Shown piece after piece: positions 10,940 to 55,478 of a stretch of DNA of 64,000 bases. Under the pieces are notes generated by a model. It was not told where the DNA came from and made no database searches. It saw nothing but the letters and a program-made list of their open reading frames with translations. The position numbers were made by a program, and so were the translations under genes. The DNA comes from Trichoplax sp. H2 (Eukaryota), in assembly GCA_003344405.1 (NCBI GenBank), contig NOWV01000018.1, positions 62,001-126,000 of the forward strand. Reading direction: 5' to 3'. Within the stretch, counting starts at the first letter, position 1, and each line of letters starts with the position of its first letter.

Positions 10940-12030
10940 TGTGCGTACAGTACAGTACCACTAACCCTAGTACATACAGTACAGTACAGTACAGTACCAC
11001 TAACCCTAGTACTGTACATAATTTAGATAGTACTGTAGGGTCCTGTCACCCATGTGGACAAACTTATGAGCACTATACTGTACAGTGTGCAGTAGAGCCG
11101 CAATTTAGTAGTCCATTCGCAACATACTGTACTGTACTGTACGCAATCAGGTTGACCATAATTGGCAAAAGCAAGTCCGATAACGCCGATCACTTCTCTA
11201 GTGGCAAAACAGTAAACTGAACAGTACTATACTATACTGTATAGTAAAGCTTATACTACACTTACTATACATTCTGTGAGATATGCTGTAGTATCCTTCT
11301 ACCGTCCTAAATCGAATGACGATAATATGTTGTGAATTATTTTTCATTCACATTAAAGTAATGACTAATATTGTAAGTCTTGCATTAGTAGTCAAAGCAG
11401 TCCGATAACGTCAATCACTTCTCTATCGGCAATACATTATACTGTACACTGTACAGTACTGTATAGTAAAGCTTATACTACAGTACTTACTGTACCTGCT
11501 GTACTGGAACTGTGAGATACTGTACAGTATACTGTACTGTACTGTACTGTACAGTGTACAGTAGTATCCTTCTACTGTCCGAAATCGAATGGCGATAACG
11601 TTTCACTATGTTGTGAATTATTTTTCGTTCATATTAGAGTAATGACTCATATTGTAAGCCTTGCATTAGTAGTCACAGCATTTAGCACCTGCTGCAGTAC
11701 ACTCTATGAGCATGGTATCGTCGATAGACTAAGGACCAATGACACTTTAGAGCATACTTTAGGGGTACTTAAGTACTTTAGAGTGAGTCTTTTATTCCAT
11801 TGGGGTTGAAAAATTCTCAACGACTTACAGTACTGTACAGTGTACAGTACAGTACGACTGTAAAATGAGTGGACTGTAGTAAGTCGTTTACTAGCACAAG
11901 AAGGCAATAGGGGCTAGACCTGAATTTTACTATACAGTACTGTACACTGTACACTGTACACTGTACAGCATACCGTACTGTACAGTGTACAGTACTGTAC
12001 ACGTCCTTTGTGGTACAGTACTGTGCGGTG
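10940..12030. repeat. TACAG/CTGTA/GTAC micro-repeat array in the FAM81-IQGAP divergent intergenic region
   Basis: Runs such as tacagtacagtacagtacc, actgtactgtactgtactgtacagtgtacagt and tgtacactgtacactgtacactgtacag. Includes a ~28-bp direct repeat tacagtacagtaccactaaccctagtac at 10946 and 10986. Confidence 0.9.
11168..11675. repeat. Diverged tandem duplication (~227 bp plus ~281 bp)
   Basis: Both copies run aagca(a)gtccgataacg..atcacttctcta..ctgtatagtaaagcttatactaca..gtagtatccttctac..aaatcgaatg..tatgttgtgaattatttttc..gtaatgact..atattgtaag.cttgcattagtagtca. Copy 1 ~11168-11394, copy 2 ~11395-11675. Confidence 0.92.
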
Positions 12031-12218
12031 TGAAATGAGCCAATGAACCTTAAGCAAATGGGGACCCACAATTTGAAATGCAGTCCAATACGGTACTGTA
12101 AGAACACGTAATTAGTACAGCTGGAAGTCCCATAGTGGACATACGTTCAGACTTCATACCGAGATTCAAAATTTTGATCGCTATTTTTTTTTCCAGTTTC
12201 TACAGCACAAATTAGAGG

Positions 12219-15200
12219 ATGGCGCAAATCGGTAGGGGTGAAGTACAAATGAGGCTACGGGAAAAAGACGTCCTTGATCCAGCATTAACGCGACGGGAAA
12301 TCTCAGGTTGACTGACATATTGATCATTTGGATTCCACTGTAATCCAGGCCTATCTCGACGTGTGACCTCCATCCAAATATCACATTGTACTGTAGTGCC
12401 TTTTTTTTTTTTTTCCTCTTGGCTTATTTCAGTCAAATGAATTTAGAATTGAGGATATTGACTGCCCACCAATTCTGAATGATAATGATATGCAAATGGT
12501 GGAGACATCTTTTACGCTATCTCTCCATCAGTTTATTCCTATTTATACTACTATGGGAGATACGCCTTCAACTGATCTTCTACTTACATCTTGATTTTTT
12601 CTTGTACAGTACAGTATAGTAAAATGCAGTTCATCTCCTAGACTTGATAACGTGCAATACTGTACACTGGACAGCATTGCATCGGACATTGCAGTCGTAG
12701 TTGCTTTTTCTTTTTTCCACTATCATGATGAGTATGGCTGTCATTTTATTGTAGTGTTATAAAGTGGTCTAATTAAATTGAATATAGACATCATTTGACT
12801 GGATTACAAGTCTAGCATTAGCTTACTATAGGTCTGAATTGTCCAACATTTTCTTCTTTTGTCATTGAAAAACCATCCTTTAAATGAGGTATTGTAAACG
12901 TTGATTACACCCATTACTAACACTTATTTTTGATTAATTACGATAGGCTTACGTTCTCGTGTCCAAGCAGCAGAAATTATGGATGAAGAACGGCAAAAAC
13001 TCATTGCTTACCAGTACCTTTGTCGCTTAGCAGAAGCGAAAGAGTAAGTAAATCTGTACTATACCATCATTCTTTGTCATCCATGGGAATAGTCGGCAAT
13101 GTAATTAGGCTGACTGCTGTCATCATAATTGCTACGCTGCCAATTGCTTATTCGAGTATGGATAGGCTGTACAGCATTGGTATTGCGTCGAAAATCGACA
13201 CTGTTGCATGTTTTAAATCATTGTAGGATAATTTTGTGATGAGTAGTTTTTTTAAACTGAATCAAAACAGAATTACACTTATCATCTGCTATATGTACTG
13301 TAATACTGCAACAGTGTAGTCCACAAAGTAGCTTTTGATAAAAAAGGCTTTATAGTCAAACACTAGAATGAAGTACTTTCGTCCGATATAGAGTACGCAT
13401 ACGAGCTACGCTGTCACCAATCAAACCCATTATACTCTCCTACTCGTATACATAAAGTAGCTGCAATGCGGTTGCGATAGTGGCAGTTTGAAATAAATAC
13501 AACTTTCCTATGTACCATGATCTAAAGTTGGAGAATACTGTAAAAGTGGGATTACAATCGATCGTGGCAGTAAAGTACTGGTACATAGAATATATTTTAC
13601 AGCATACCAAACACAAAGGTATATTGCTGTATGAATACATCGAATGATTCTATTTATATTTGCCGTATTATTACAGCTGGATTGAGCGATGTATTAGTGA
13701 AAACATTCCGGTATCAATTAGCGAGTTTGAGAATACTCTACGAAATGGCATATTGTTGGCAAAGCTTAGCCACTCGTTTGCTACTGATGTGGTCCCGCTG
13801 AAGAGGATCTACGATGTAGATGAAGCAAAATATAAAGTAAGCAATCTTGCATGATACTTGTTGACTTATTAACCTAAAGTTCAAGTTATATTATGGATTC
13901 GCAATCTGTTTCGAAAAGTGTAAAGGTTTACTGCTTTCCTTGAACGACTTATGATAGTACCTTAATCTTTTCTGGCATTCTAGTAGTCCTTGATCTTGCA
14001 TATGTATGCTGATCGAGTAGTCATACGATGCATGTATATAATACAGTTGACTTTTTTTAATGACTGTGTTAGATTGCCATGATTGTATTATAATTTGTGA
14101 TAATTGATTGAATAGTGCAAGAAATTAACGTAGCGAACTTTTAATGTACCATCGTTAACTATATTTATACTGATATTAGGTTAAAGGATTACATTTTAAG
14201 CATACGCAAAACTTTAATTACTGGATCGAAGCATTGGACAGTATCAAATTTCCTAAGGTACAGTTAAGATATTCCAGTATAGAATTTACATTAATCTTTA
14301 GTCTAGTCGTAATAATTTCTCGTCAATAATAGCCTACACGTTTAAAGTTTGCTAACATGGAGGCATGACCATTGATTAAGTTAAAAATAGGATAGGACAG
14401 TTTAGTGTAAATTTATAATTAGTAGACGTCTTAACGCTATAATTGATGGTGTAGTGTGGTTTTGTATTAAAAGAAAAAGATATAGAAACCAATTTTATGA
14501 TCTCTATCAACTTGTAGGAATTATTTAAATCACATATATTTCTTATCAAGAGTTGGATCATATTATCGCTCGCTATTTGTACTATATAACTTATTATATC
14601 GATTAATCCCTTGTAAATTAATGCTCTTACGATTAAAGCTTGGATTTTCTTCGATATAACCAATGTATCACATACAATATGCCACGTACAATATGATCAG
14701 TTACTATACCATTTAAGAACGAATGTTTCTATTTTGAAAATGGATTGATGAAGATTGTGATCGGCAAAAAAATATAGCGGATCAAAATCTTAATACCGAG
14801 GACATTTTTACATGATATGTCATAGATGGTATTGGTAGATTACGGTACTATACTTTCTCTCATTAGTTTAGGTGAAATTATCACAATGGTGTGAGAATTA
14901 AATATCTGTGCGCTGGGCTATATGGAGATGTTATTTTAGTTCCCGTTATACCATGATTAATACGCATAGATGCAGTTGAAATGTATTTCGTCTGTAGCTA
15001 CTGTTGTAACGTTGAGTAACTTTGATCATTACAGATTTTTCATCCTGAAACTGTCGACTTATACGATCAGAAAAATATGCCCAAAGTAATCTACTGCATT
15101 CATGCCGTTGCGTAAGTTGTTCGTCAAATATTATTCTACTTAGCTTAACAAGATCGTTTATTATATCAATTCTTGGATCTTTAAAGATTACTTACCATGT

Positions 15201-18200
15201 TCAATGATTAGATTATACTGTTACAAGCTTGGTAAATCACCTGCTATTACTAGCCTTAGTGGTAAAGTTACTTTTACAGGTATGCATTTTTTTCAATTTG
15301 TAACGTATTTCTACATCTTATAAAATATTTTAAAAGTTACAGAATGGAATCAAATATTAAGTATAGAAAGATAAGTAGTGCTGATATCGGTTATTCTACG
15401 TTAAATTGCGATTCATGTATGTCTGTGTGAGTAACTTTCATTGTACAAGGAAGCAACAAACTTTAATTCTCTTTATTACGTAAACTAGATGAAGAAATTT
15501 TAGAAAAGAGCGTTGAACTAAAAAGCCGTGGTGTGAAGATTCCGATGTTCAATCGTATTGGCGGGATTTTAACAAAAGAGGTATACCTATCTAGATTATA
15601 GCTATCCGTAAAGGATGTACGAGTATTAAATTTTTTCTCTTATTATTATCGCTAGCAATTTATTCAATATCATTATCCTATTCGACTATTTTATTTCTAG
15701 ATAAAAGTAGACGATGAAACTTGTAAGGAGATAGCATTTTCATTACCTATCAGAGCTGTCAACGTTATAACATTATAGAAGACATTGTAATAATTATAAA
15801 CTGTTTAGTTTTCAAGGCAATTGTAGCAGTAAATCGCGCAATAGATGATGAAGACGCGCCACAAACTGTAGTTGCAATGAATCATATCGCTGCAAGATTG
15901 GTTGACATAGATCCAGATTATGCTGATTACTATCAAGAAAAATTATTTACGGCTAAAAATATCAAAGTATCAGAAGCGGCTACAGATGAAATGGAAGATA
16001 ATACAGAGGTTAGCTAGTGTTTTAGTTTTTGTTGTTCATACATAGATTTGATACTGTTATTGATATATCTTTATTCTCCATATGTAGCTTACTGAAGAAG
16101 ATTATTATAAGACAAATCTAAAGCATGACCAGATTCAGAGTATTGTCAGTGAAGTTAACGAAGAAAGAAAAGATTTCGAAAGTAAGTTTATAGCGCAAAA
16201 ATTTATAGTATTAATGGTCAGTGAATGGTTAAATTTTTTTTCTGTTGTATTTATTACAATCAAGTGAATATGGCATTGCAAGCAGTTATCGACTCCATCG
16301 AAGATGGAGATTTGTTAAGGGCTCTTAAAAATCCGCTTCTACTGTTTTCGGGAGTTGATTCCTCAATCATACATATATACAGAAATCATCTTATGACTCT
16401 GAAGGCAAAGGTATGTCTTTTAAGTAGTATTAATTTTAGTTGATATAGTGTAACTATCAGCCATTATTAATTAAATGTCAGGAAGAAATTGTTTAATTAT
16501 ATTTTAATGTTACTATTCTAGCGTAATCAGGAAGATGCACAGATCACTTATGATGACATTCAACTTACAATTAAGAATGCTAATGCAGAGATAAAGAAAA
16601 TGAATTACCAACAGTCTATTTTACAGATTCTTAACAACTTACTTGACAGTAATCCTGTAAATTGTGCAAAATTAAAGGAATGCCTGGAAAATGAATATTT
16701 CGAATTTAGCAATCTTAATCCTGCATTCATTGAACAGTATAGTATTGTAATGAGGCGTGGTCGTTTAGAAAAAGTTGTCATAAATGGCTATGGGGAAGAA
16801 GGTTTGTTAACATCTGACGAAATACAGAGTTTAATTAATCAGGCTAATCTTTTGCGCGAATTAAACGATGCTCTGGATCGAGAGCCAACCGATAATCAAA
16901 AATTGGAAGAATGTCTAGGATCGGACATACTTGGATTGCGTGACGTGGATTTCGTATGGCTGGAAGTTTATTCGATCTGCTTGAAAAACAGAAGAATGGA
17001 GAAGTTAAAAATTTATGGTAACGGTAATAAAAGTCTTTTATACCTGGATGAACTTCAACGTCTGATATTGCAGACTAACTGGTTGATCATCTTAAATGAG
17101 GCTCTGGATAAGAATCCTTCTGATGAAAAGAAGATTAATGAGTGTTTATTGTCTGAATATATAGATGTAGATGATGTTAACTCTGATAATATAATGCAAT
17201 ACATTACGATGCTTAAGTTACGTAAGAAAGAAAAATCGGCTACTAGCAATGATTTTAAAGAAGTAATGTTGACTGTTAAAGACATTCAGGTTATTATTTC
17301 TCGTGAAAATGCGCTCTTGACTTTGGATCGAGCGTTGCAAGCAGAACCGATTGAAATTGCGAAGCTGAGAGAGTCTTTAAGATCGAAGGTGTTAAATTTT
17401 GCAAATTTACGTATGGAGATATCCTCAATGTATGCTGCTTCGTTGAAGGAGGGACGTGATAAAAAAGGCGTAATTAGTGACGACATTCTTCGTGAGAATG
17501 AGATACAGTGTTGTATTGATGAAGTGAATGCATTAATTGCTTTAAATGAGTGTATCATTGAAGATCCCGTTAATATGGAGAAATTGAAAGGGTATCTATG
17601 TGACGATGTGCTTAATTTATCGGATGTAAACGTGGAGAATTTATTTTTATACGCACCCTCATTAACAACGAAGAGAAAACAAAAAATGAAGGATTATATT
17701 GATCCCATTAAAAATCTTTTAAGTAAAAGCGAGGTGAATCTAGTTATTCATTTTTCAAATATCATTGTTGCTATCAACGAGGGTTTAGAAAACTATCCTT
17801 CCAACAAAGAACAGTTTAGTAGCTGGATACTAGATGAAACATTAGCGTTCGATGGATCACAGTCTCATCTGGTTACGCTGTACGTCGAAATATTAAAAAG
17901 AACGCAAAAGGAGAGATTAGGTAGTGATGAAAGTTTCTTGAATTATTTGGATATCCAGAACTGTATTACTCTTGGGAATGAAATTCACGATGCAAATGTC
18001 GCGCTAATTAAATGTGTTGCCAAAGTTAATGCAACAGTCGAAGCGGAAGACCATGAAGCTGTATTATTGGCTTTGCAGAGTGAAATTCTGTCGTTAAAGG
18101 AAGTAAATCCGGAACAAAGCACTGGCTATTTGACATCGCTGAAGGCGGCCAAAGACGAGAAAATTTCCGATTGTCAAAATGGTTGGGTCAAGCACGAGAT

Positions 18201-21200
18201 CGAAATTGGCGGTCACATATATTATAACTTATCTACTGAAGATTTCATGTATGATGCTCCTGAAGGTTACGTATCAAATGGAAGGTTTCTGACTAAAATT
18301 GAAATTGAGGTCAGCGCTTCTATAATTAATTTTTAGAGAATTTACTGCAGTATTATAATTGTAAATTTTTATTCTCATTTCAGCAAGCACTTATAGCTGA
18401 AAATGAGCGCTACAACTTATACGACAGGCAACTACCGCAAATTATTGCTATTCAAGTAAGATCTATAGTGGCTTCTATTCCGGTATTGAAGGTGATTGAA
18501 ACAGGTCTCTTCTAATTTACTTAGGCTCTTGCACGTGGCTATCTTGCCCGGAAAGTTATCAAAGAAAGAAACTATGAGCTAAAATGCTTGCTACCGGCTG
18601 TAATTCAGGTATACTTTGAAGAAAACGTCTTACTGTACTTAATTACATAGATTTAGTAATATAGATCGTATTTAGAAATTTACATCAGCTAAATATCTCT
18701 TTCTTACTTTTAATAGATTCAGGCTGCTTGTAGGGGATATCAACAAAGACGCGCCTATTTAAATAGACTAAAATATTATGCAATAAATGTAAGTATTGTT
18801 TATATAATATAAAAATGTTAGCCTTTGACTTTTTAAAATTTTGATAAAAATTACTATTGACTTCTAGGAAAAGGCAATCATAAAAATGCAAAGCGTATTT
18901 AGATGCTTAAAAGTTCGGAAATACTATGAAGGACTAAGTAAATTTTATTTTGTTATAATTAAAATTTTAAAAAGTTTAGGAATATATAATATCATCTTAC
19001 TTATCGACATTGCTATTTTTTTATGACACATTGCTAGAATCACTCGATGTCCCGTTTGCAGCAATTAGCATGTTCGTTTACTTACTTGACGAAACTCAGA
19101 AAGATTTTAACGAGGAGCTTGGTACGTTATTAAATTATGATGAGATTAAATTTTGTGATACTATGCAATAATACCGCTTATATTCTGTAATCTGTATTAG
19201 AATTACAAAAATTGAGGTCTCACATTGTGACAAGTATTCGAGCCAACTTGAAGCTAGAAAAAGACTTAAGTTCAATGGATGTGAAGATCGGTTTACTTGT
19301 CAAGAATCGAATCACATTGCAGGTATAATCACTAGAGTTGTATTATAGTGAAGCTTTTAAAAGTAACATACGTATGTATATATATCAAAGGAAATCTCTT
19401 TTAAATTGAAATTTTGTAGATGATCAGTAATTATACAAACGATTTTATTACAGGACGTAGTCCATCAAAATAGAGCACTTAAGAAAATTAATAAAGATGT
19501 TACAAATGTGAATGGGATCGATGTATTGATAAAGGAGAGAACGCACCAATTAGAGGTAGCACAATTATCTTGATCAAGTCATTACATTGTATTTCATTAA
19601 TTAATTATACAAGTATTACTGTACTAACAGACAATTTATCATTTCGTTAAGGGATATCAAAGTTTGTTTTATCTATTGCAAACTGAGCCGAAATATCTAG
19701 CAAAGTTAATATTTGAAATGCCTCAGAGTCGTAGCAATAGATTCGTCGAAACAGCCATCTTAACCATATTTAATTACGCTGCAAATACCCGAGAAGAATT
19801 CTTACTTATTAAATTGTTTAACACGTCCTTACAAGAAGAAGTATTGTAAGCACAATTACTTCTATATAATTGTGATAAAGAATGATATCATAATAACCTT
19901 GGCTATTATTTCTTATAGGAATCGTGTTAATTCAATTGAAGATATTGTTGAAAATAATCCTTTAGTTGTTAAGTTGGCCGTCCAGTTTAATAGGTTGATT
20001 TTGTGAATAATTAATATATTAAAACTAATTTTATGACCATTCTTATAGTCCTAATGCATATGAATTTATCAAGTAACTGATTATTATGTTAGAGGAAATC
20101 GAAGCCAGAATTGCCTAAAAGAAATTTTTGGCTCCGTAATTCAGCCTGTCATTAACAGCAAGGATAGTTATGATCTAGACCCAATGAATATTTACAAGGC
20201 CTGGCTTCACCATTTAGAGTCAATTTCGGGAGAAGCTAGGTATTATACTTTATACTTTAGCAATCCCCATATCTTTTATTTTGTAACATGGTTAGTGATC
20301 ATTCTATTTTAGTCAATTGCCTCATAATATTAATACGGAACAAGCACTTAAGTATCCTGAAGTTAAAAAGAAACTTGCAGAATGTATTAACAAATTAAAA
20401 GCCTTAATTGCCGATATTGTAGGAGCAATTGTACCTGCAGCCGCAAAGCTACCGTAAGAAATTATTTTATCAGATTGTACATTACCATCTGGTCTTTTAA
20501 CGCGCTGTGATGAAGTTATACTGTTCTAATCTTTGATTTATGCAATGTTTTCTACATTCCGACTTGCGATTGTAATCGATAATTTTAGATATGCGTTGCG
20601 CTGTGTTGCAATGACTCTCAGGAAATGTCTAGAAAAGAAATTTCCAAACGATAAAGACATTGCCTTAAAAGTTAGCATCTTGGGATAGATCTTTTAATTC
20701 CAATGCTTTACAGATAAATACTTAAAAGTAAATACGTAACTGTTTAATTATAGGCTGTAGGACATTTCATAATATGTCGTTATATGCATCCTGCTTTAAT
20801 TGCTCCTGATGCTTTTGACGTTATTCCATTCAATGTGGAAAACCCTTTAACTACTCATCAAGTAGGTTTATACCTGTTCATGGTACTGTTATTATTAAAT
20901 TGTTATAGCTTTTACTCGTTTACTTAAATTATTGTACTTTCAGAGACATTGTCTTGCTTCTGTTGCAAGTCTTTTACAACGAGCAGCAATAAATAATACG
21001 GTAGGCACTTTTATATCTGCTATTATGGCTGTGTACAACAGTTGGATTAAATAATTATTGATCTTTTTACTATGGCGTAAAAAAGTTTGGTAACGAGAGT
21101 CCATACTTAAGTTCAATAGATGATACTATATCAGAATCATTTGCGAAACTACGGTAAGTGTTTTTAGATTTTGTTCTTAAAGTTTAAATTGCCTTTAGTA

Positions 21201-23233: not shown

Positions 23234-25129
23234 TATTTTTTCGTATCGGTACTGGTGTGCTTATTGAACTTGTACGTTACTTTATAAAATTTTAATTGGT
23301 AGACATTTTATTTTCTGCCTCTGAATTACTGATTACGCTAATTTCGTTATGCCCACCAATCTAAAATTGCAAGCGATAAAGTATTTAAATGAGATTACTT
23401 AGTTTCCTTAGTGAAATAATTTTAATAAATTTAGATCGTGCATTTTCTGATATCACCGTTATGCGCAAAAGTTTGCCTTCATTTAATTGGATTCATTTAT
23501 ACTCAATATTCAGTTATAAATCAATCTTTGATTGATAATAACTATTATCACATTTAGCCAAAGTTTTATTGCAGATTTTTTGCACCTTATTTATTTACAT
23601 TTATTCTTAATGTGATCAATGGGTTTTTCTGTAGAGGTCACAAAATATTTTCAATTAAATAATATGATTGCGTGATGAATAAAAGAAAGGTAGAACACTA
23701 CTCTAATTGATGTTGTAAAGTATAAATTTGCAGTATAATCATGTGCGTATATGCACGCATACTGTAGTTAGTGGGAATCCCAATTTTCCAAGGTAGGTAG
23801 CTGTATAAAAGTATGCCCGTGATAAAGTCTTCCAAATGAATAGTGCGACAAGAGCTCTGGTTTCTTATTGATTAAATTTAACTTTTGTTATATAAATCTA
23901 TCAATAGACATGCACAATTTTACTTCTATCTACTATCTAGATATCAGTATGATCTATCTAGGAGACTGCACTAACTTGCCTATATTCGAAGTGCAGCCTA
24001 TTATTGTAATCCATGAAATAATCACCCTTGTGGTATTCAATCTATGGCATATAGAATCACATCAATTAGATTATCACAGATTTGCAGAATTGGAATACGG
24101 AATGTCAGGCATGCATTTTATAAGTTAGCGTTTACTATAAAAATGTCAGACTAGACAATTTTGCAAATCGTATACTGTACAATATCCAGGAAAATGTCCT
24201 TCCTGTATATGGTAAAAAGTGGTTGTCCATGCTAGCAGCCGAGTCATTTCGCACCTTTTACCGTCCAAGTGTTTTTTAATACGATAACGAAACTACTGTG
24301 TGATACATTAGATTATGATAGATAATTATGGATTTTTTCTGAAAGGCTGAGGTGTTTTCTTTCTGCAGTATACAGCAGTACTGTACAGTATAGTACAGTG
24401 CAATATGCGTATATTGACTGCATCCTTCAACAAACGTTTACCGGTGTTGATGATGCAATTGTACATGAGGTATCTCGTCGTTGCTGCTCTCAGAAAGGAA
24501 GCGAATACACAGTATGATGTCCTGTTCTAACTGTTGAGTCGTACACACTAAGTAGGTAGCAAAGTATCGCCGATGGCGACATTATTATGGTGCGAAATGA
24601 GAGTGATTGGTCAGGTATATGAGCATACTTATTGTAATTACTCACTGTCATCCATGTGTCTTACAGTATACGCCTACCTATTGCTGAATTGTACTACACA
24701 GACTGCTAAGAAAAAGTGGATAGTAAACAAAAGTGACAAGAGAATTGGCATGAAAAATTACGTCGGCAAAGTACTATAGCATTTCACTGCATGTGCGCTA
24801 AAAAATGATTCCATTTCAATGTCGGTAGTGTACTACATGTCCGCGTGGACTCTGTGGTGCAATGTAAAATGTAAACAAATAAAAACAACAATAATAATAA
24901 TCTGAATGCTGTGCCACTGGATTCATTTTATCAACAGGGAAGCAGGCAGAAAATGGTTTACCATGAACTAAAAGGGGAAAATGAATGGTAAAACACTGTA
25001 GTCAATAACATTGGAAACGCCGAAAATGTTCATTGATGACGAATTGTGATTTCTGAGTTGCTTAAATCTACCGTTTGTACTGACTGCAAAATCAATCAAT
25101 CCCACCCAAAAGAGTAAAAGCAGTTTTTG

Positions 25130-25900
25130 ACCTACTGTACTGTACAGTAGTCCCACAGTACTACACAACGGCCTGCGTTACCATTGTGCCTACTGTACTG
25201 TACAGTGTACAGTATGTTGCGCAATGTGCATTTTATATACTGTACAGTGTACAGTACTGTACTGTACTGGCCACTCACGGACTACTAGAATGTCCTCTTC
25301 CAAGTAGTCCGAACACTTGGAGTACAGTGTACAGTACAACGGCACAGACTGTAGCCAGTGTACTGTACATTGTACTGTAAGTAGAAAGAGACCCGTACAG
25401 TGTACAGTACACTGGTACAATGCAATACTGTACTGTAGTGTAGTCGCTACTCACCAAAGGAATGAAGAAAAATCACTTTGAGCGATGGCACTCGCTCACG
25501 CTTGACGTGCTGTGCTGTTCTACATTGAAGGCACGGTCATATTGTAGCAACCAAGTCAAATAATCGAGGTTTAAATGAGATATGTGAGGTCTTACTTGTT
25601 TTGCCTGCAGGTCAAATTTGACAAAAATTACCTGTAGACTGTAGTGTAAATAGTGTACTGTACAGTACAGTATTTTACAGTCAAGTACAGTACTGTACTG
25701 TACAGTGTACAGTAGACTTCTGCATACAGTACACAGATCTTTTTTCCCTTCAAGACAATCATCAGGATACTGGTACTTACAGTACTTTTCACTGTACAGC
25801 ACTGTACCACGCCGTACTGTAGGTAGACCTGATCATGACGATCTCCAAGTGGACGATTACAGCGTGGTACTGTATAGGCCAACTGTAGTGTACAGTACCG
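25130..25900. repeat. TACAG/CTGTA micro-repeat array immediately upstream of the CRTC start
   Basis: Dense tactgtactgtacagtgtacagta-type runs at 25130-25450 and 25630-25900, ending ~70 bp before the CRTC ATG. Confidence 0.9.
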
Positions 25901-25967
25901 TGTATTCCGCTGACAGATATCCCACCTCAAATACGGTTGTGGACAAAAAAAGCATCCCCAAAATAAA

Positions 25968-28900
25968 ATGGCGAATAACCGTAGATTTGTTGACAGAATT
26001 GCCTTTCACCAGACACGACAGGCCGAAGAAACGGCTGAATTTGAACAAGTGATGCGCGAAGTTAAGACTACCAAAGATACCGCTACAAGGGTACGATTTC
26101 AATTACTTTATCTACTATCACCAAAGGGTTCTTTTTTCCTATTTCTTTTCTATTTTTTGCGGGGGGGAAATAATGCTACAACAACTTCATCAGTGGGTTA
26201 GCGTACTGTATCAACGTGGTGGTACAGTACTACTCTAGCGACTGGTGTATTTACAGTACACAACGGAGTAAAAGGCGATCACGCATCTCCGTGATATTTC
26301 ATGATCTAGCGTTATTTTTACAGTATAGTATTAAAATATCAGCCAGTTCTTCATCGTCGATGACTGCATCATGTTAGAATAAGATCACTTTCTTTCTGGT
26401 AGATTGCCACAAGCTCTTGTCTCAAGTATTACTTTGAAGGGGATTTTGATTATCTTGATGCCTTCTTTCTATTTGTGCTTGCGGTAGCAATCGTTTTCGT
26501 TTGGTCCTTTCTATGGGTTGTCAATGTCAACCTTAAGTGATTATCAATCTTTTCCAAAGTAGATGTACAAATTGTGTTATTTTTACCTTACACAATATAT
26601 CAAGTTGAGTTACCGTTGATGTTACAGCGAGCAAAGTTGGATATTACGTGTACAATTATCCTTTCTATGGGCTATGAATTATAGTTTGTACCCGCAGACG
26701 TTATTTTAAAAATTTTCCATCAGCATAAGACAAGTAGGAACTCACCATTACTCTAGTAGGTAATCCACTTTTCATACGATAACTGCTTGCTTGTACAGTT
26801 AGCGCATTCTAATATCCACTTTTTGTCAACACAGTGGAACGTTCAAAGTTTTAGAAGCAGCAGCAGTCATCCGAATTTCATAATTTTATATAGACTGGAC
26901 GTGTATGGATAGATAGACTTGGTTAGTCGACATCACTAGAGTGGATGCAGCCTAGTAATAATTATACAGATTGAAGTCGAAACGATCTATAAAGGACTGT
27001 AATGTACAGTAGTTGACTGGATAGTAAAGTAATAATAATATTGATGATAGCGATAGCGTGCTCCTCGTTATTACTTAGCATTCTTGATCCTAACTCTGTG
27101 TAGTACAGTAGCGTTTGTATTGTCTAGTAATGATTTTGAGTCTTATTCCATAGGTGAGGATAATTGTTACGTTTACCATAATCTGCCAACTGCCTAAGTG
27201 TTATTAGTGTATCATCGATTCGATTGAAGTTTTATGCGCATTTTAAAATAGATCCAATCCAGCTGCAATGCACCATACTTGTAGATGCGGTATTAGAGGG
27301 ACTAATATCTACTACCTAATTATTGACTGCATTCTTTTTTGAGATTTGAGTTCAAAAGTATTGGTAATCTTAATGAATTGTGCTCTGCATCATATACGGC
27401 GTTATTGACGATTGTACAGCACTCTTATATCTTTCCATTATAATTGATAAAGTAATACCTAGTTTAGAGAAATGAACTACAGTCAGTATTGTATTTTACA
27501 CTCAGATTCAACCGCTATAGTTGGTGTACTGGGGTCAAAAGAAGAAATGGCAAATTGTAGCTGATTTGCTAAAACAGTTTTGGATATTTATAAAAAGTGA
27601 TTAAAAAGCTCTTATGCTAGAAGAATGTACGTACAATACGAATAGTAGAGAATTACTATTGGAGTGGACATAAGCTAGACTGATCACTATATCCTATCAC
27701 CTATTTTTTCTACACTTATTGTCATCCTTTATACAGTGTATCTTGCTTCGTACTTGACCTTAGCCGTTGTACATTGATTGAATTTTGTGATCAGGTTGAT
27801 CGCTAACGAGTGGAATAAGCACTAGACGTTGATCGATTAATTAATTATCATTGCTACGTTGTATCTGCAACACTTCATGATATCCTTGTCCTGTCATAGT
27901 ACATTGTGAACGAGTTATCCAGTAAGTTTGCGCTCTGTTTGTAAACTTATACCTTTCATAGAAAAGGAATTTGCTATCAACCACATCTCTCGTCTCACTT
28001 AATCCTCGATTTATGTAATACTTTGGAAACCAGTAATATTCTAATGAGATGATACTTAAAGAAGGGAGATGGGTGTCGTCGATTGATGTATTTACTGTAT
28101 AGAGTATCTTTTGACTTGTTAATCAATCTACGTAAACGTGCAATTTTTATAGGCTATTACTCATCCTTTACAGTACTATACGGTTAAATTGATGCACGAT
28201 GATAGTAGCATAATCCGAGTAAAATTGAATGTTGTGCATACGGTGATGCAGTTTTATTTTTTTGTTCCTCTCATTTAATTTTGACGTTAATTTTCCCTTT
28301 TAAGATGGGTATCTATACACATTAATTCCTCTTGCCATTGTCTGTTTTTGCTTCCTACACTCATAATGAGTTTTCTTTTCAACAGTTACATCCACCATAT
28401 AGACAACCTATCATTAACAATTGCTACAGAAGTGAATCGCTACCGAATATTGGCGGTGAAAACAATACTATCGATTTACAGGTAAAGCCTTTTCTATTTG
28501 ATACAAGAAAATAGAATATTAACCAATTTATTACATCCAGTATACTTGTACCATCTCCATTGCCCTATGATATGATATCACTGACGGTGACTGAATATTG
28601 CGGGTTGTATCAAGTCATGACCAGGGACTCCTAAAGACAAAATGCAGGATTTTGTCTAAAAGTCCCTGTCATGACTCCGAGACTACTTCCATTCTACTGT
28701 ACTATGTTGGGAGGATGAACGAGTTTGAGTAGACATTTTTGTTGAATTCAATTGATCGATACTGTAGCTCGTGAAATAGAAGGCTAAAAGTGATGTAAGT
28801 CAGCAAGAAATGTCTGGGCAATAAATTGATGATGGATGATAAATGATGAATTGCTGATTATTAATTATAATTATTATTGTATACTCTTTTACCCTCCTGC

Positions 28901-31900
28901 TTAGCGCTTAGTCGCTTATACTATGCAGTTGATGGAGACGACATGCCGTGCTATCGTTTTGTTATCGTCAATTGAACTGGTTACGATATTTCTACATTGA
29001 AAAAATGGTTGAAAAAGTTTTTAGCATAAAGTCAGTTATTGAAAATGATGTTCTTCTAAAAAGCGATAGAGTACTGTACTTGCTGTACTTGTTTACATCA
29101 CCAAAAAGGCATCATTTTTATGCATGTTGTCAGCAATGGACGTTAACTTGAGAAATAACCTGGATAGCTGTCGTCAAGTCTTTGTGGGATAAAATTAATC
29201 TACTGATCAAACGAGTTGGCCATTCATGACGGACCTGCTATTTATTTATTTTACATTATTTTCTAAATAAATTTTACTATACAGTAGTACTTAGATATTT
29301 TTCATTTTTGAGTCGTCTATGATAGTATCTTTGAACTCTACTCTAGTCCAATTTCTACCATTAGTGTGCTTTTTGCAGAGGCGTCTTTGGCTTCTTCACT
29401 CTCCTACTGTTGCTACGGCTATGCGTTGTTACCTGTATTGTAGCGATAGACTGTAGTATGCAAGGAATTGAAGCGGCTTGAATTGTACGAGTGATTTTTT
29501 CCTCCATCAATCAACTACTGTACTCTTCTATTGCAGTATGAAGTTTGATATAGGCCAATTGATCGTGGATAGTTTCCTTTCTATGTAGAAATAAATCAAT
29601 TTCAATTTTGGACCATAGAAAATTGATGGGCGAAAAAATTTCACTGGCTGCTGGCAAAATATTGCACGCCATTGTACTGCATGTTGTACGATCTACCCCC
29701 CCCATCACCCTACTCTACTCTACTCTACTGTGACGCAAAATGTACCGTATACTGTAGTGTAGTGACTTCCTCATGAAAGACTTGGACGGCCAATACTAGT
29801 CTTGGCCGTCCCTGATACCGTACGTACTACAGTACGCAGCTACAGTACATGGATGCCTTGTACTGTACACTGTACACTGTATAAGGAGGGTGGTACTGCA
29901 TCAAGTGAGACTTGACACCACAGCCATTTCTAGCGTATGGCTGCTGCCATAGGCGTGAAACTGCGTCCAAATCCCAAGCCACTTGGCGCTTGGGTTCCTT
30001 ATGAAAAAAAAAAAAATCAATGTCCAAAATTGTCTTTCAAAATGGAGTTGAATGATACAATTTAGCTGATCTTAAATTGAATTACTACGTTAAATCAATG
30101 ACAGTAGTAGCTTACTACCCATTATAGCTACGTCATCAATTTTAAATTGCTCTGTAGCAATGATCACTCTGGAGAATCAACCTACCGTAGGTAGGCAGGA
30201 GTTTGATAGCAAAGGTAAAATTCATGTTGTGCCTATTTGCTTTCTGTCGTAATGGATTCATTAGATTGCTATTAATCGACAGTATACAATAGTCATCATT
30301 CGATAGGCTAAGAAAATACTGCTGTAATATTGTATGAGATTCGATTGGTGAAAAAAAATGGGACATCGGACCTACTCGACCATCATGACTGACGATTGTA
30401 GCGATTGACTTGGATTGATTGCCAATGGAAGATCTTCTTTCTCTCCCTTTCTTAGAATCGACAGTATAATAGTATAGAATCTACTGTTAAGTTAATAGTG
30501 TACAGTATTTGCAAAAGTCGTGACCTCTACCTATGCCAATGTACATGATGAAGAGTGGAATATAATACAGTACCATACGCTAACACCTTGCATGAATAAT
30601 TAATAAATATTGCTATGCGTAGGCAGTAAACTACAGCTACGATACGCTAATCGAGTTTATTTGCAATGGACGTCTCTCGATACGACTGCTACAATTCAAT
30701 CGATTGCGGACGGATAGACATTATTACTCTATTCAAATTGAATTTAATCTACTCTGCAAATGGACATAGTCTACGACCGTGTTTATTTGTGTGATGATCG
30801 ATAACTGCAAAGTATTGCTGTCAACATGAAGAAAAACATCAAAATTGACTTTGATGACTATTCAAATGAATATAACAGTAAAAATGAACAATTTTAAATT
30901 CATTATATAGTACTGTATCCTACTGTATACCATAGCTGCTTGTCCCTATGTTTGCGTCAGATGTTTTTTGTTAAGATTGTATCTAATCGTTGTAGATATA
31001 AAGACTTAAATTAAATGAACTTAAAAGAAAAAAAAAATGATTAGCCAAGACACGATCTATGTCTTGTTAGTAGTATGCAATACAGCCAGCGAGCGTTTTA
31101 GATGATAGGATACAAGTTGACTTTCTACAGTAAAGTACCAGAAAATGACTCTACTGACTATTGGACAACATCGGCATTTCTTTTACTTCTTCCCCTATCA
31201 TTACATACAATGAATTATAAGGCTGTATGTAGAATGCAATGATAAAAGTTGCCGTCATTTCACTCTTGTTTTACTTGTAATCCTTTGATCGAGATACGAC
31301 ACCCATTTTGGCATGAATATCAGACCCCTCGAGCATGTGGCATATGCTTGATTCTATATTCTTACTATCGACAGCAATGGGCTAGGATTAGCGTATCTAC
31401 TACAGTAATACACTGTTAAATTATCCGATAGACTACATCAATCGTTATGTTATTTCCAATTGATAATTAAGGTGTCGTATGTTTGGGGTTACATTTCTAT
31501 TATTTTAATTAATAATCTTACCCTTTTTTCCTTCTATATGATGAATAGGGAGCCTTAGATAATTTAAATCATTTAAGAGCAGGACATTCCAGTGAATTAT
31601 TGTTTGACAAAAGGGACAGACCACGCAGTACAAGTCCACGTCGGTCAATTTTAAATGATCGTCCTCGAATAGTATCCTATATTAATTCTTTTTAAAGTTG
31701 TATTCATTTGCTAGGGTACCATGACTATACGGTAATCATAATATAGAAGAAATGATGAAATGTAAAGACGGAATTTTATACGCAAGTGCTTATACAGATT
31801 CCATTATTCTAAGTTATTATTCACTTTGGATTACAATATCCTTGGTATTGATTCCATTTTCTTACTCTACATTATTTTCATCAATAAAATAATATCGAAC

Positions 31901-45963: not shown

Positions 45964-47200
45964 CTTCAAATGGACGGAATCTTCTATGAAGACAGTGTTT
46001 GTTTCAGCTTGAATGTTTCCTTTTTAGCAATGGATTTGCTATCTTCTGTAAAGAAAAATTCAATACCGCTATATCAATACATATTACGGATTTCAAAGAG
46101 GATTGAAGTGGATAAAAGGATAAGATAGAAATGGCAATACGTCGAGATTACATGAATGATATTATTCTTCCTATATGATGCTATTTGAGTATTACAGTAT
46201 ACTTGTATGAAAAGGATAGCGTGGCAAAAAGTTAGGATAGACGATCACTTCAATCATTGATCGCTAAAAGAGAGGAGGCCAATGTATAGAAAGTAGGCAA
46301 GGTAACGAAAATGAAATGAATGATATCAAAGTTAGTCCATGTGCTTTTAATGTCGTTCTTACTATCAATGAATAGTATCCAATTTTGTTAATCCATACTG
46401 ATGGAAGGAGAACTTTGTTATTACTCCATACTGCAAGGACAATATTTTTATCACAAGACGAATAATAACAACAAGTACATATATATGATGGACCACTTGC
46501 ACTGGAGGCAACAACACCAATCGATTCAATTCAATAGGATACAGTACATGCAAGCGCTATTCTATCGATATTAGATCATACATTGGCTGGATATTTGTCG
46601 AAGTGCCTTGATACTGTACGTAGCACTATAGTACTGAAACTGAAGCGACTTTTCCCCTTTGACCGGGTCGTCTTCAATGGGACAGTAATGTAGTTTTGGC
46701 ATTTTTCTACAAATTGAAAATGGGACAAAGTGAGGACTAGACTACATGTATAGTATACCATGACTTCAGCGCTATTACTATCAATGCCATTGGAAAATGT
46801 CGCTGACTAATAAACATGAATAAAAGAGTCTATCAATGATAGACTCAAAAGAAATGTCATTTTTTTCAAAGATTGAAAAGGACCTTTCTTAAAGCCACCG
46901 TTCTTTTCACTGACAGGATTTGACTGGATCACTGAGGAGATTCTTGAACTTTCGATTCGTTGGCATCAAGCGTTCCAACCCATTAAGTTAATGCTAACAG
47001 CTTTAACACTACCAAATAAACTTTCACTCTTGATTTGTCGCAATCTGCTTCCACTCAATGAACTAAATCTAGTCAATAATGAGAAATCCAATCATGCAGG
47101 AATGGCTTACTCAAACACATTAGCGACTAATGAAGAGATGTGGATCTCCTCTGCTTGGTTGACGTCGGAGTGAGTGGATTTCCACCAGCTACATACGCTT
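45964..47200 (-). other. Putative non-coding 5' UTR exons of UBE2Q (~47200-47111 and 46045-45964)
   Basis: The UBE2Q ATG sits ~10 nt after a TTTTAG acceptor. Upstream on the minus strand are a TTTACAG..GAAG|GTAAAT exon (stops in all three frames) and a TGA|GTAAGC donor at 47110 next to a motif-rich promoter-like region. Confidence 0.45.
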
Positions 47201-47490
47201 ACAGTACACTGTCTACAGTACAGTACAGTACAATCTTTTACAGTACATGTACTGTACCTACAGTACTGTACAACATGTACATACTGTAGACAAACCAGCA
47301 CGGGTGTTACGTGTTGGACGAGACGTGACTGCTGGCATCGCTTTGTATTATTACGTACCACTTGGTACAGCCATTGTACTGCTGTATGGTAGTGTAAACG
47401 GTAGGAGAAGTCGATGCCTGTCAACGTTTTCAGTCGTGTGAAAAATGACGTACCGTACCGTGCCGTGCCGTGCCGTACAGACGGTACGCT
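47195..47490. repeat. TACAG and (CCGTA/CCGTG) micro-repeat array at the putative UBE2Q promoter
   Basis: tacagtacactgtctacagtacagtacagtac... at 47200-47290 and cgtaccgtaccgtgccgtgccgtgccgtacag at 47449-47480. Confidence 0.85.
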
Positions 47491-47643
47491 TCAACACAAA
47501 GCGCATCGGCGACAGCTGGACGCTCAGTCAAGTCACTGGTTCAATCCATTGCTATACAGCTTACATATTGCGGAGGAGGCTAAAGTCGAGTTACGATAGT
47601 GACGTTGCTCAAGCAACAAAGATTTCCAAAAATGATGTCACCC

Positions 47644-48265
47644 GTGACAATGACTTTGATGTGTGACATCTTTTTGGCTGACGATGCTGTCTGATGAAGT
47701 AGTGGCACTCCAGTGTAGGTATAGAAAAAGACGACTATGGATTGGAGAGTCGAATTGGGTAAACTGCATGAATTCACTTTGGATTTCACAGGGAAGAAGA
47801 AGAAGTTGCAAGGCACTGCCATGGACTACTAGAAATTACGTGTAGTCCATGACTAAAGCAGAAACTCTTACTGTACAGCAGAGAATTTCTCTTGCAAGGA
47901 GAATCGTGTAGTTCTATTGTATCCTTTGCAAAAATAATGTCGCTATGATGTACCTGTGACAATGGCTTTGATGGGGTGACATTTTTTTGGCCGACGATGC
48001 TGTCTGATGGAGTGGAGGAACTCCAGTGTAGGTATAGAAAAAGACGATTATGGATTGGAGAGTCGAATTGGGTGAACTGAATGAATTCACTTTGGATTTC
48101 ACAGGGAAGAAGAAAGAAGTTGCAAGGCACTGCCATGGAAATTACGTGTAGTCCATGACTAAAGCAGAAACTCCTACTATACACTACAGTAGAGAATTTC
48201 TCTTGCAAGGAGAATGGTGTAGTTCTATTGTATCATTTGCAAAAATAATGTCGCTATGATGTACC
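47644..48265. repeat. Head-to-tail tandem duplication, period 312 bp, high identity
   Basis: Copy 1 47644-47954 and copy 2 47956-48265 both run gtgacaatg.ctttgatg..ctccagtgtaggtatagaaaaagacga.tatggattggagagtcgaattgggt..tttgcaaaaataatgtcgctatgatgtacc. Confidence 0.95.
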
Positions 48266-49275
48266 GTGGGACTAGTGAACACGACTCGAGAGCGACAATA
48301 GCAATGTGACATCCTTTTTGAGACGGGTGAATCTCATTGCTGTCACCATGGAACTAGGCGAAACATTTTAGTGCAGTCTACGATGACACGGTCACTAACT
48401 TACTGGCTCTAGTCATCTATTAGTTCAAAAGAGCTCGAAAATGGTCTAAAATTAAAAACACTTTGTAAAATTGGCTCAGTATGAAAGACTAGCAGAAATT
48501 AGCCATCAAGTCTACAGTATTTTACCCAGAAATCAGTACCGACCAAATAAATACTGTACAGTACATAAACAAAACAAAATATACAGTACTGTACAGTAAT
48601 ATCAAAAGCATCCACAATAAATACTGCACAATGCCAATCTAGTTGTGAGTCAACTTGCGACTCTGAGTGACGAAGCCATGATTTACAGCCGTCCACTGGC
48701 TCCTTAGAAGCATCGCCCGACAAGTTACCAGTCTATCCTGTATTCTTAAAGTCATTGCAATCGAGCTGATCGCCTAAAAGCAAACGATTAAAACTACTAT
48801 TTTAAACCGTGTTCATTCAACTCGGTGGCCAATCATCAAGAATATTCTATACTATAGTCTGTAAGACACTATGTGGCATGTATCTGTACGGAAGTACGGA
48901 CAGACTGTATGGCTAATGCGCTATGCTGTACTGACTGTATCAGGGACTTGGAAGAATTCCCTGAGTCAGTAGTGAATAAGGCAAGATTAGTACGGTACGG
49001 TACAGTATAGATCAAGCTGGTCGTCAAGGATTAACTACGCATGCTTGCAACGTTGTTACCTACTGTACTCATTACTAGCAATAATTACAGTGTTCTTGCC
49101 TCACACCACTGTGGCCACCGATCGACCGACATCTTGGATTTTACCTTGGAGTATGTTCAAGACGCTCAAGCATTAAAAAATACTTTATTGGATGTGGCAA
49201 AGAATTGAATATATTAAACATTTTCAACGTAAAGAAGTGAAATTTGGAGTCAGATTATAGTTTATCCAATAAATC

Positions 49276-52200: not shown

Positions 52201-52936
52201 CATTGTTTTGATAATTTATTATATTTGTAAATGATGTTAATTAAGGGCGGTGATAAACTTCAAGATGCCTTCTACATCTTCCAAGAAATGGCTGACAAAC
52301 ACGGAGCAACTGTTTCATTATTAAATAGTCAAGCATGTTGTCACATCTTGCAAGGAAAATATGATGAAGCTGAAACATTGCTACAAGAAGCTTTTGATAA
52401 GGTATTATAATATAAATACTACTGTTTAATTGTTAAGTTTTAAAAAATCAATTCGTTAAATTTTGTATTAATCCATGATTAATCGCGCCTGTTATTATTG
52501 TACCAAACAATAGGATAGTAATGATCCTGAGACATTAGTAAATTTGGCAATGATTTCTCAGCATCTAGAAAAAGCTCCGGAGGTTATATAAATAACGTTC
52601 TATTTTAAGTATCAGTAATCGTCAGTATACTATATGGACTGAACTACAGTACATGCTAATGCAGAGAACATACTGATATTAATCGTGTGTACATTTTTTC
52701 GTTTTCAGATATTTAACCGGTATTTGTCCCAAATTAAAGACGCCCATTCTGATCATGAATTTGTTAAAGATTTGGCAGCTAAGGTATAACCACCACACAT
52801 AACAGCTTACTGTATATTTGTTTAGTGATGCTGACAGTGATAATTAAGACTGGAAACTAAACTGCTATCTTGTAATTTATAGGAAAAAGAATTTGATATT
52901 ATGCTCGAACATACACGATCATCCTACACTAGGTGA
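49276..52936 (+). CDS. COPE: Coatomer subunit epsilon, about 11 exons
   Basis: [63 protein letters not shown]../[11 protein letters not shown]/..[41 protein letters not shown]../[11 protein letters not shown]../[23 protein letters not shown]. Confidence 0.95.
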
Positions 52937-53419
52937 AATGTGTATTGGTTGCATTGGTTTATTCTGAATATTAAGGAAATGATAAATAAAATAAAACAGT
53001 TATCAAAATACATTACAATGCTGCCATGACGACTATTCTCTGTGCTCGAATATCTAAGAATATCGCATTTTCTTTCAGAGATATTCTTTAGTACTGAGTA
53101 TAATGTTAAGCCACCTCTCTATTTCAGGCTGTAAATATTTCTAATATATGTAGACGAAAGGACGGGATACAGTACCTAGGTCATTGTCTGTTACCAATTT
53201 ACTAGCTGTGGCTGTCTACACCTTCCAACAATTAGTTAGCACTCTTAATCGTTTCTTACTTAATTTACCAGGTTTTACTTTTGCAAACGTTGAAGAGACG
53301 AAATGTACGAAAACGATTTTAACGTCATTTATCGACTGTAGTATTAGAAGTTGATAAATCGCGAGATTTAGTTATATGCACGTGGGCTTTACTATAATAT
53401 TTTTAAACTTTATTTACTG

Positions 53420-55101
53420 TTAATTACTATTAATTGGAGAAGCAATTTTACATTTTGTTAAAGGTATTGCCTTGGAAGTATAGCAATTATCACAAATCCA
53501 TTCGGCATTCTCTTCACTAGTTAAGTAGCCGTACGCAGACTGACTTAGGCCAGTGCAAGCGCGGTGAAACCAAACATCACAGCCACTCTCGCATAAAATA
53601 GCATCATCGTTATCATTGACTTCTTTGCCGCATGCCCCACATGGATAAGACGGTTCGTCAGGCTCCTAATTAATACGTATCAATACGTATTTTAATTCAA
53701 GATGTACTAACATAAAAGTTTTTGTTTTCGAAAGTGGTAGCTGACGACAGCCTTATTAGAAATAGAAAGAATAAGGCAAATACCTGCTGAGGCGGTGATT
53801 CAAGTAGTTTATCTTGCTTACGGTTTTGCTTTTTGCTCCGCTTATTACTTTGATTTCCTGTAGATAGAAAAGTTTATTACGGAGTTGCTGATTTAGTTCT
53901 GTACAGTAGTATGATAAGCTTCTGAGTTACACTTCTGAGAGGTACTATTGTATCTCCTACAGTACAAGGAGATTGTTGTTGTTATTAATAGTTTAGCTCG
54001 AACAATTTTTGCATGCCATAAATACACAATTGGTGTTACATTACTGTGCTGTATCTACAGTACATGTCGATACTCGTGTAAATGAAGTTGAGGTATTGAT
54101 CAATTTTGGCATTTACTGCAGTTGATCTGTCTTAAATTGAGAATTTAAAAAATTTTCACCTTTGAATGTATCTAGTACTGTAAATTAGCGGTAAAAATAT
54201 TTACAAATGCTCTAAGAATTACGAAAGAGGCATTTATCTACATAAGCAAAGTTGATACTTGGTACTTTTAAACAAGAGCAACTTGTGTCCAAAATTCTGA
54301 CGCATAAGCGCAGTCAAATACAGTATATGTACATCATTGATGGTAAATCGATGTCATGTTCAGTAAAAATTTATTTGTCTAGAAAGGATAATTGTATAGT
54401 TTTCATCGTTTCTTAGCGCACAGTAGATTTTACGCCATACAGATCGAAATTACGAATGTAAAACATTAATAATTGGAACGATTTCGAATTCATTCATATG
54501 CTGTGCTGGGTCGTCTGAACGTTCGTACTGCCATCATGTTTGCTATTTACCATGTTGCAATACTGTACAGAAAAGTTGCCCCATTTTCAAACGTAGGACG
54601 CAAAACTACTCGTTAGTCAATTAAAACTGACAAACAGACTTGATTGAGCACTGTTATCGTGTTTCGATCTTACGCGTTTTTACGGTGAGTTACTGTAACG
54701 GTATAAATTGATTTACCATCTCGAGTCCTATTTTAAAGGCTAGACCAAGATGAATCATTAGACTATCTTTACACAAGGCTATGGCTAAGTGTTAATCGTC
54801 TAAAGCCTTTTACGAATACGATATACACTACTAATGGACTAGTTTGCTGTAATTCTATCATAATAGATAATAGGCTTCAATCACTTCAATGAAGGTATTA
54901 CTATTCAGTTTAATCAATTTTCATTATGGTAAACTGTAAATTTAATGTCACCACGCTATTTCTGAAAATGATCAATCAATCTAGACATAGAGAGATTAAC
55001 AAGCATTATGCGCTGGAAACATTCCAGAGGGCCACTACAGTATCGAAAAGTGTTGACTTACGAGTGCTTTGATTTTGTGAACGCGTTCCTTCTCTAGGCA
55101 T
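53420..55101 (-). CDS. PYGO: Pygopus-like PHD-finger protein, about 120 aa, 3 exons (55101-55062, ~53857-53784, ~53665-53420)
   Basis: Exon 3 encodes YPCGACGKEVNDNDDAILCESGCDVWFHRACTGLSQSAYGYLTSEENAEWICDNC, the Pygopus PHD with its EVND signature. Exon 2 has a basic NLS-like KRSKKQNRK. Exon 1 (MPREGTRSQNQST, phase 1) is frame-compatible. The PHD call is firm; exon 1 is less certain. Confidence 0.88.
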
Positions 55102-55478
55102 CTCGATTAGGTGTTCAATAAATAAGATAAAAAGAGAGATTCCACTTACTATTGCCAATATTAAAAGGATGTCGAATAGTAGACACAAGAGTAATGTAAA
55201 AAGAAAGTCTTGCAACTCTTTCAGGCTTTGTCTACTGGCATCACTTTGTCAACTTTCGCATTTGTTGCTTAACACAGTCAAGTGGAGTGAATGCGCCTGT
55301 GCAGTGTGTCATGATGCAAAGCACGGACGTTGGGATGGAAGTACACTGGTTGTAGAGTACAAGTACTGTACTCTACCGTACCGTACGATCAGATCGGGCG
55401 AGATCCGGAATCCGGATGTACGGATGTATCTCACAGATTTCTATCTTCATCCAGATTATCACATTCAACCCTACCTAA
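55102..55478. promoter_or_regulatory. Bidirectional promoter between Pygopus and FOCAD
   Basis: Divergent ATGs 377 bp apart. Locally GC/CpG-rich core (55290-55425) with tactgtactctaccgtaccgtacg and the near-palindrome atccggaatccggat. Confidence 0.65.

Follow-up and report, generated by a model that had tools for sequence, protein, structure and literature searches.

Why does one five-base unit dominate the simple repeats of the Trichoplax genome, and why does it sit at promoters? This question, standing since 2010, is raised by a 64,000-nucleotide stretch of the Trichoplax sp. H2 genome (contig NOWV01000018.1, positions 62,001 to 126,000; here, the window), in which arrays of TACAG and CTGTA units lie ahead of several genes. 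The repeat is published, and a further sighting adds little. What we propose is an origin: the arrays may be accumulated excision footprints of a Tc1-type transposon, biased to accessible promoter DNA and then reworked by slippage. We hold this reading, drawn from sequence patterns, to be an even call, and we favor it because the unit, its CASTG variant and the TA-bounded 5-bp insertions or deletions (indels) match the excision footprint of Sleeping Beauty and Tc1. A preliminary description of the window had left the choice between a promoter or chromatin signal and a mutational footprint in open chromatin; our tests lean, at that same strength, to the second.

The arrays in the window are the published (ACAGT)n gene-upstream repeat and thus a feature already known. 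A 432-amino-acid protein encoded in the window falls into a 90% cluster with Trichoplax adhaerens XP_002110814.1, and the window's IQGAP exon matches TRIADDRAFT_37304. In T. adhaerens, ACAGT makes up 78% of 7,233 pentanucleotide repeats, and these lie upstream of a gene within 1 kb in 54% of cases and within 5 kb in 85%; the associated genes are enriched for translation and protein modification, and the function was reported as unknown (Wang 2010, PMC2871265). The traits of that class all recur here: a Trichoplax host, a dominant pentamer and, as seen in the window, concentration just upstream of genes. Both the repeat and its gene-upstream position had thus been published when the preliminary description, which missed the paper, was made.

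The arrays are real and genome-wide. In the window, TACAGTA occurs 99 times (17.1 expected under an order-2 Markov model) and TACTGTA 92 times (18.1 expected), with density maxima at 10.5 to 12.0, 25.0 to 26.0, 29.5 to 30.0, 47.0 to 47.5 and 48.5 to 49.0 kb. Parsed as TA(CAG/CTG/CAGTG/CACTG)TA, the window holds 152 runs, 128 of them single units and the other 24 made up of two to six units. The organism's own genome (G000, 94.9 Mb) contains 6,616 sites of TACTGTACAGTA (control, 12), 7,619 of TACAGTACTGTA (control, 20), and 9,677 forward plus 9,740 reverse sites of TACAGTACAGTA (controls, 9 and 21). Pure ACAGT dimers number 19,417 versus 359 for TACCG, and these were the only two pentamer families to survive filtering in a 694-kb sample, which comprises the window and 630 kb of non-random blocks, five transposase-centered stretches being excluded. 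Extrapolation from this sample puts the genome-wide excess at ~150,000 units.

The preliminary description had listed four separate units (TACAG, CTGTA, TACAC and GTGTA). These reduce to one motif, TA-CWG-TA (W, A or T), plus a variant of period 7, TA-CAGTG-TA or TA-CACTG-TA (CASTG; S, C or G). Because GTAC is a palindrome, the apparent flip of orientation between units is a single A/T change; flips requiring inversions were rejected, GTAC being its own reverse complement. Both TAs are needed by the motif: in 230 kb, TACWGTA is enriched 5.1-fold and 17 of its 18 non-central one-base neighbors stand near background, at 0.9- to 1.7-fold, the exceptions being TACAGTG, the sole non-central neighbor above that range (2.7-fold) and itself part of the period-7 variant, and the forms with a central C or G (TA-CSG-TA, 2.2-fold). 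The CAGTG/CACTG core of the variant (TACAGTGTA/TACACTGTA) is found 112 times in the 694-kb sample versus 13.3 expected, and the slippage-equivalent CTGTG/CACAG core (TACTGTGTA/TACACAGTA) 18 times versus 13.3. Among 12 five-base cores CAGTG/CACTG is the only one enriched, the other 10 lying at 0.5- to 1.5-fold, and inside arrays it outnumbers CTGTG/CACAG by 67 to 5.

A plain slippage microsatellite should have near-identical adjacent units, an expectation that failed. The center differs in 14,235 of 33,652 dimers genome-wide (42%, where fully random choice would give 50%); between adjacent units of the 694-kb sample, mixing is 0.43 to 0.46 at the center versus 0.00 to 0.13 at the remaining positions, which bears out the earlier remark that these are not simple microsatellites. 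The unit is also in excess outside arrays. Beyond 1 kb from the nearest run, TACWGTA ranks first of the 32 TA-xxx-TA words (534 versus 195), and it does so too when its flanks break the repeat (319 versus 131). This far-from-array enrichment is 2.7-fold under an order-2 Markov model, 2.1-fold under order 3 and 1.6-fold under order 4.

We next consider where the arrays lie relative to genes. Pfam searches of 55 frames support IQGAP (CH, RasGAP, RasGAP_C), CRTC (TORC_N, TORC_M, TORC_C), COPE, a PHD finger protein and focadhesin (FOCAD), with weak support for QOR (E = 0.031); the labels UBE2Q, QOR, Pygopus and FAM81 are putative, taken in part from the preliminary description. Start codons were tested at 3388 (QOR-like), 12219 (IQGAP, inferred), 25968 (CRTC), 43765 on the minus strand (UBE2Q-like) and 49276 (COPE). 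The multi-unit runs within 1.5 kb upstream number 0, 9, 8, 0 and 2, respectively, so dense arrays mark some 5' ends but not all. These upstream zones make up 11.7% of the window and hold 19 of its 24 multi-unit runs (circular-shift P = 0.008) and 82 of 191 single units (P = 0.0026), values that apply to the window and rest on three clusters and on start codons rather than mapped transcription start sites. Three uncertain starts were excluded, those of FOCAD and the Pygopus-like gene (0 runs each) and that of a coiled-coil gene whose provisional start position shares the IQGAP array.

The clustering first described stands in part: seven of its eight ranges rank among the top 5% of windows of equal size (a set that includes the ranges), and 55340-55390 is at 5.8%. 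Its assignment to gene 5' ends held for IQGAP, CRTC and COPE and failed for the QOR-like and UBE2Q-like genes. The clusters given to QOR and to Pygopus/FOCAD contain no run (Table 1), the latter being mainly of a sister (TACCG)n type; the array given to UBE2Q (47195-47490) is 3.4 kb from an ATG that has no run in the 1.5 kb upstream; and the 29710-29900 cluster lies inside CRTC, between its TORC_N exon (25.97 kb) and TORC_M exon (36.0 kb). What can be kept is that the arrays are lineage-wide and enriched upstream of a subset of genes.

We turn to differences between related copies. Self-BLAST of 744 kb (0.8% of the genome) gave 154 paralogous pairs with 159 clean indels, a count into which overlapping alignments enter some indels twice. 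Indels of 5 bp number 18, versus 8 of 4 bp and 5 of 6 bp. Eight of the 5-bp indels are TA bounded, and seven of these read CWGTA, though TACWGTA makes up 12.7% of TA-xxx-TA; the eighth, a one-base variant, comes from a repeat that also contains one of the seven. By microhomology, three of the seven share the bare TA only and three lie on GTAC; the remaining one is a tandem duplication. At G000:C1:~733,560, one of three copies reads TA-CTG-TA where the other two read TA, the long form being the minority, and the copies of a five-copy repeat at G000:C2:~532,500 carry 0, +5 or +10 bases with mixed centers. TA-bounded indels of 3 bp (9 of 30) were discarded as mostly duplicates of one event or slippage.

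Contigs from four sequencing runs were compared with the window at 10300-30200, where they are swamped by cross-matching arrays, so that depth over an array reflects cross-mapping and not copy number. Among the 12 of 47 indels listed, one is a 5-bp unit of opposite center at 28698. At position 10471, the contig of run X1 has 10 additional bases ending in a TA-CTG-TA unit, which that of run X4 lacks.

TACAGTA and TACTGTA are the two canonical footprints of Sleeping Beauty (10.1101/659086), and these Tc1/mariner footprint letters are present here in both forms, TA-CAG-TA and TA-CTG-TA. In the process that we propose, a Tc1/mariner-type transposon would have repeatedly entered and left TA sites, most of them in open promoter DNA. 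Each cycle of insertion and excision would leave TA-CWG-TA in place of TA: the two CAG overhangs, being identical, would anneal over one central mismatch that is then repaired either way. Ends reading CAGTG and cut five bases in would likewise leave TA-CAGTG-TA or TA-CACTG-TA; CWG and CASTG are both self-complementary around one central mismatch, as would be expected from identical overhangs of CAGTG ends. Many Tc1 elements begin CAGTG. Re-use of a TA inside a scar could produce the mixed runs, and slippage could supply the small excess of identical neighbors. The bias to promoters would then be a matter of accessibility, and insulation or looping roles, if any, would be secondary. We extend this more tentatively, and with less confidence, to a specific history: a Tc1-type cutter with CAGTG ends, either a vanished family or a domesticated transposase, may have acted on TA sites of open chromatin on the order of 100,000 times, and so recently that close paralogues differ. 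On that view the repeat would be an excision record of where germ-line chromatin was open, perhaps since recruited to signal promoter hubs or insulation.

Several observations weigh against an origin in excision footprints. Non-canonical footprints make up more than half of events in Sleeping Beauty cell assays (10.1101/659086), and here they are not enriched: TACATA is at 0.8-fold, TACGTA at 0.9-fold, TACATGTA at 0.9-fold and TACAGCTGTA does not occur in the 694-kb sample, and TACTA is below expectation in 230 kb, comparisons in which high background limits power. A five-base stagger was not found in the accessible parts of the Sleeping Beauty footprint literature examined. The far-from-array enrichment falls to 1.6-fold, or 1.4-fold on the strict count, under the order-4 model. 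The indel events are few, partly non-independent and mostly unpolarized; only one of the three bare-TA events has a third copy pointing to gain, and a consensus-polarized test of 14 tandem families with 39 indels gave two 5-bp events, neither of them a footprint insertion. Of the seven CWGTA indels, the three with GTAC microhomology and the one tandem duplication are explained equally well by slippage or template switching.

A further objection concerns the parent element. No TA-flanked, CAG-ended element was found in the 744 kb or around eight transposase-like places, nor were terminal repeats found at those places (flanks, L001 to L005 and L030 to L034). Tc1/pogo-type genes are few (at least 2 matches to DDE_3, at least 3 to DDE_1 and at least 4 to HTH_Tnp_Tc3_2), and the best Tc1 gene (L030:4572-5717, minus strand, on G000:C323) is single copy, has an apparent intron and one in-frame TGA, and is without terminal repeats. 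A protein search with its catalytic half gave 331 relatives, of which the 120 listed are at most 53% identical and include no close placozoan copy; against its own genome it has six matches, the other five at 26 to 33%. An excess of ~150,000 units without surviving elements is hard to explain, and because the parent-element test failed we do not file the arrays as Tc1 footprints. Literature searches, made at the level of listings and covering few subscription papers, turned up no paper tying the placozoan repeat to excision footprints, and the accessible text of PMC10580291 and PMC6067683 does not discuss the repeat.

The scan of the 744 kb for inverted repeats ending in TA-CAG or TA-CCG gave 21 pairs, of which 19 are arrays mimicking terminal inverted repeats (TIRs) and 1 is an AT-rich chance pair. 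The best TA-CAG pair (G000:C230:583,728-586,200) was rejected as internal to an unrelated, high-copy repeat of ~630 bp with non-CAG ends. This family (L076:3537-6392, G000:C230:583,537-586,392) has 596 candidate copies, 40 of which were scored at 96 to 100% identity; with TGTCAC/TGTTAC-like ends and no long open reading frame at the G000:C230 locus, it looks young. An HTH-only gene related to the Tc1 gene on G000:C323 lies in L033 (G000:C1:~1,491,500), and L002 to L005 hold four long open DDE-family frames (361 to 549 amino acids) without terminal repeats, possibly domesticated transposases.

The best surviving alternative, which we think unlikely, needs no transposon. GTAC seeds would grow by replication slippage and by short template switches at the GTAC palindrome, with the opposite strand copied and the fifth base flipped, mainly in nucleosome-poor promoter DNA. 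GTAC does recur at 5-base intervals (T as spacer 27 times, A 22 times), 4 to 6 bases of microhomology accompany four of the seven CWGTA indels, the polymorphism at 28698 is on a GTAC, and an array treated as single-stranded DNA folds far better than its shuffles (z = -5.75). The sister TACSG repeat mixes its centers too (105 of 464 dimers genome-wide, 23%), and a parent element becomes unnecessary. However, such growth offers no route from a bare TA to TACWGTA (three events), leaves the far-from-array enrichment with non-G/non-C flanks unexplained, and does not predict the preference within arrays for CAGTG/CACTG over CTGTG/CACAG.

TACWGTA could instead be recognized by a dimeric protein of DNA-binding or architectural type, with the arrays under selection as promoter or loop-anchor elements at housekeeping genes. 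This view is compatible with either origin, and the motif is indeed sharp and two-fold symmetric and clusters upstream of IQGAP, CRTC and COPE; the functional enrichment of ACAGT-associated genes cited above (PMC2871265) and the predictive value of a repeating ACAGT motif for the Micro-C map in Chimaera (PMC12817080) point the same way. Yet two of the five tested starts have no run, excess units also occur far from arrays and within tandem repeats, copy number turns over between close paralogues, and gains of exactly 5 bp need more than selection; we regard it as distinctly improbable. Least probable is that the arrays are what is left of TIRs from the Mutator-like elements that have been reported at loop-anchor promoters in placozoans: Kim et al. 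2025 place a loop-anchor motif in such TIRs at about one third of genes, a share similar to that here, but their annotation is automatic, made with EDTA (PMC12221973), Chimaera assigns the transposon motif to ACGG and not ACAGT (PMC12817080), arrays alone form the false TIR pairs described above, and, array-rich matches set aside, no stretch of the window shared sequence beyond the micro-repeat with the interspersed repeats of the 744 kb.

The features of the window are collected in Table 1. Within the first array field, CTAACCCTAG is duplicated (10961-10970 and 11000-11009); we take it to resemble a telomeric or telo-box word. Minus-strand segments at 44000-47150, upstream of the UBE2Q-like ATG, are exon-like and bounded by AG/GT, and may be a putative gene or a long leader; a Pfam search of 30 proteins gave nothing convincing, either in 44.0 to 47.1 kb or for individual UBE2Q exons. 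An intergenic tandem duplication of ~320 bp, 90% identical, lies upstream of COPE (47632-47954 and 47945-48265).

Table 1. Array fields, isolated runs and start codons in the window
Feature	Position	Strand	Remarks
Weak cluster upstream of QOR-like ATG (3388)	3190..3295		Two single units, no run
Dense TA(CWG/CASTG)TA array field	10946..11999		9 multi-unit runs; between divergent coiled-coil gene (minus, annotated ATG 9643) and IQGAP (plus)
Local duplication 11168-11399 / 11394-11680	11168..11680	+	37-base pure-unit block in second copy only; unpolarized
Candidate IQGAP start codon	12219..12221	+	T. adhaerens model begins at next exon, ~12979, still downstream of array
Two-unit run downstream of candidate IQGAP start	12605..12616
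Two-unit run between IQGAP 3' end and CRTC	24379..24390
Dense array field upstream of CRTC	25133..25714		8 multi-unit runs
CRTC start codon	25968..25970	+	TORC_N next, E=2.6e-12
Single TACTGTA	28697..28703		One run X17 contig reads TACTGTACAGTA: 5 extra bases, opposite center; unpolarized
Three-unit run inside CRTC intron	29861..29881		Away from any known 5' end
Array at end of exon-like minus-strand stretch	47214..47270		2.0 kb upstream of COPE ATG, 3.4 kb upstream of UBE2Q-like ATG
Sister (TACCG/TGCCG)n repeat, ACGG type	47449..47478
Two multi-unit runs upstream of COPE	48552..48598
COPE start codon	49276..49278	+	Coatomer_E, E=8.7e-7
Weak cluster between PHD (Pygopus-like) and focadhesin genes	55340..55390		One TACTGTA and a TACCG dimer

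If correct, an origin in excision footprints would answer by one process both why ACAGT dominates the genome and why it sits at promoters, and would mean that the scars of transposon excision alone can build the main simple repeat of a genome. Existing placozoan assemblies allow a direct test of this origin. Automatic calls of TIR elements at placozoan promoters, for their part, may be self-complementary arrays.

Among known systems, close in letters are the canonical footprints of Sleeping Beauty and its Tc1-like relatives (10.1101/659086), which share the identical seven letters, both forms and, putatively, the 5-bp gain at TA. Unlike those, the units here are stacked in arrays, genome-wide, with no CAG-ended element found; the six non-canonical footprints of that study show no excess where tested, and the CASTG form is absent from its list of eight. 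Placozoan chromatin motifs offer a second comparison. In T. adhaerens, Chimaera reports two repeating motifs, ACGG, which it links to the transposon motif described by Kim et al. 2025, and ACAGT, which it keeps separate (PMC12817080). Both have counterparts in the window, where the ACAGT repeat is joined by the sister TACCG/TACGG repeat (47449-47478, 55374-55386), which is probably the ACGG motif and possibly, as TA-CSG-TA, a second footprint type. In the accessible text, the ACAGT motif receives one sentence, from a prediction model, without an origin or binding factor. The GP1 promoter-hub motif of Kim et al. 2025 (PMC12221973), which lies within EDTA-called Mutator TIRs, likewise marks about one third of placozoan promoters, mostly of housekeeping genes; it is compared here by description, its letters not being given in the accessible text, and Chimaera equates it with ACGG. 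In contrast to those TIRs, no bounded Mutator-like element is seen around our arrays. The nearest match of all is the (ACAGT)n repeat of Wang, Zhang, Meyer and Bao 2010 (Biol Direct 5:18, PMC2871265), alike in unit, genus, dominance and position less than 1 kb upstream, which was defined there by perfect repeats of more than 12 bp and counted as a simple microsatellite. The accessible text of that study covers neither the CASTG variant nor the randomness of the central base, and it mentions no isolated units and no origin.

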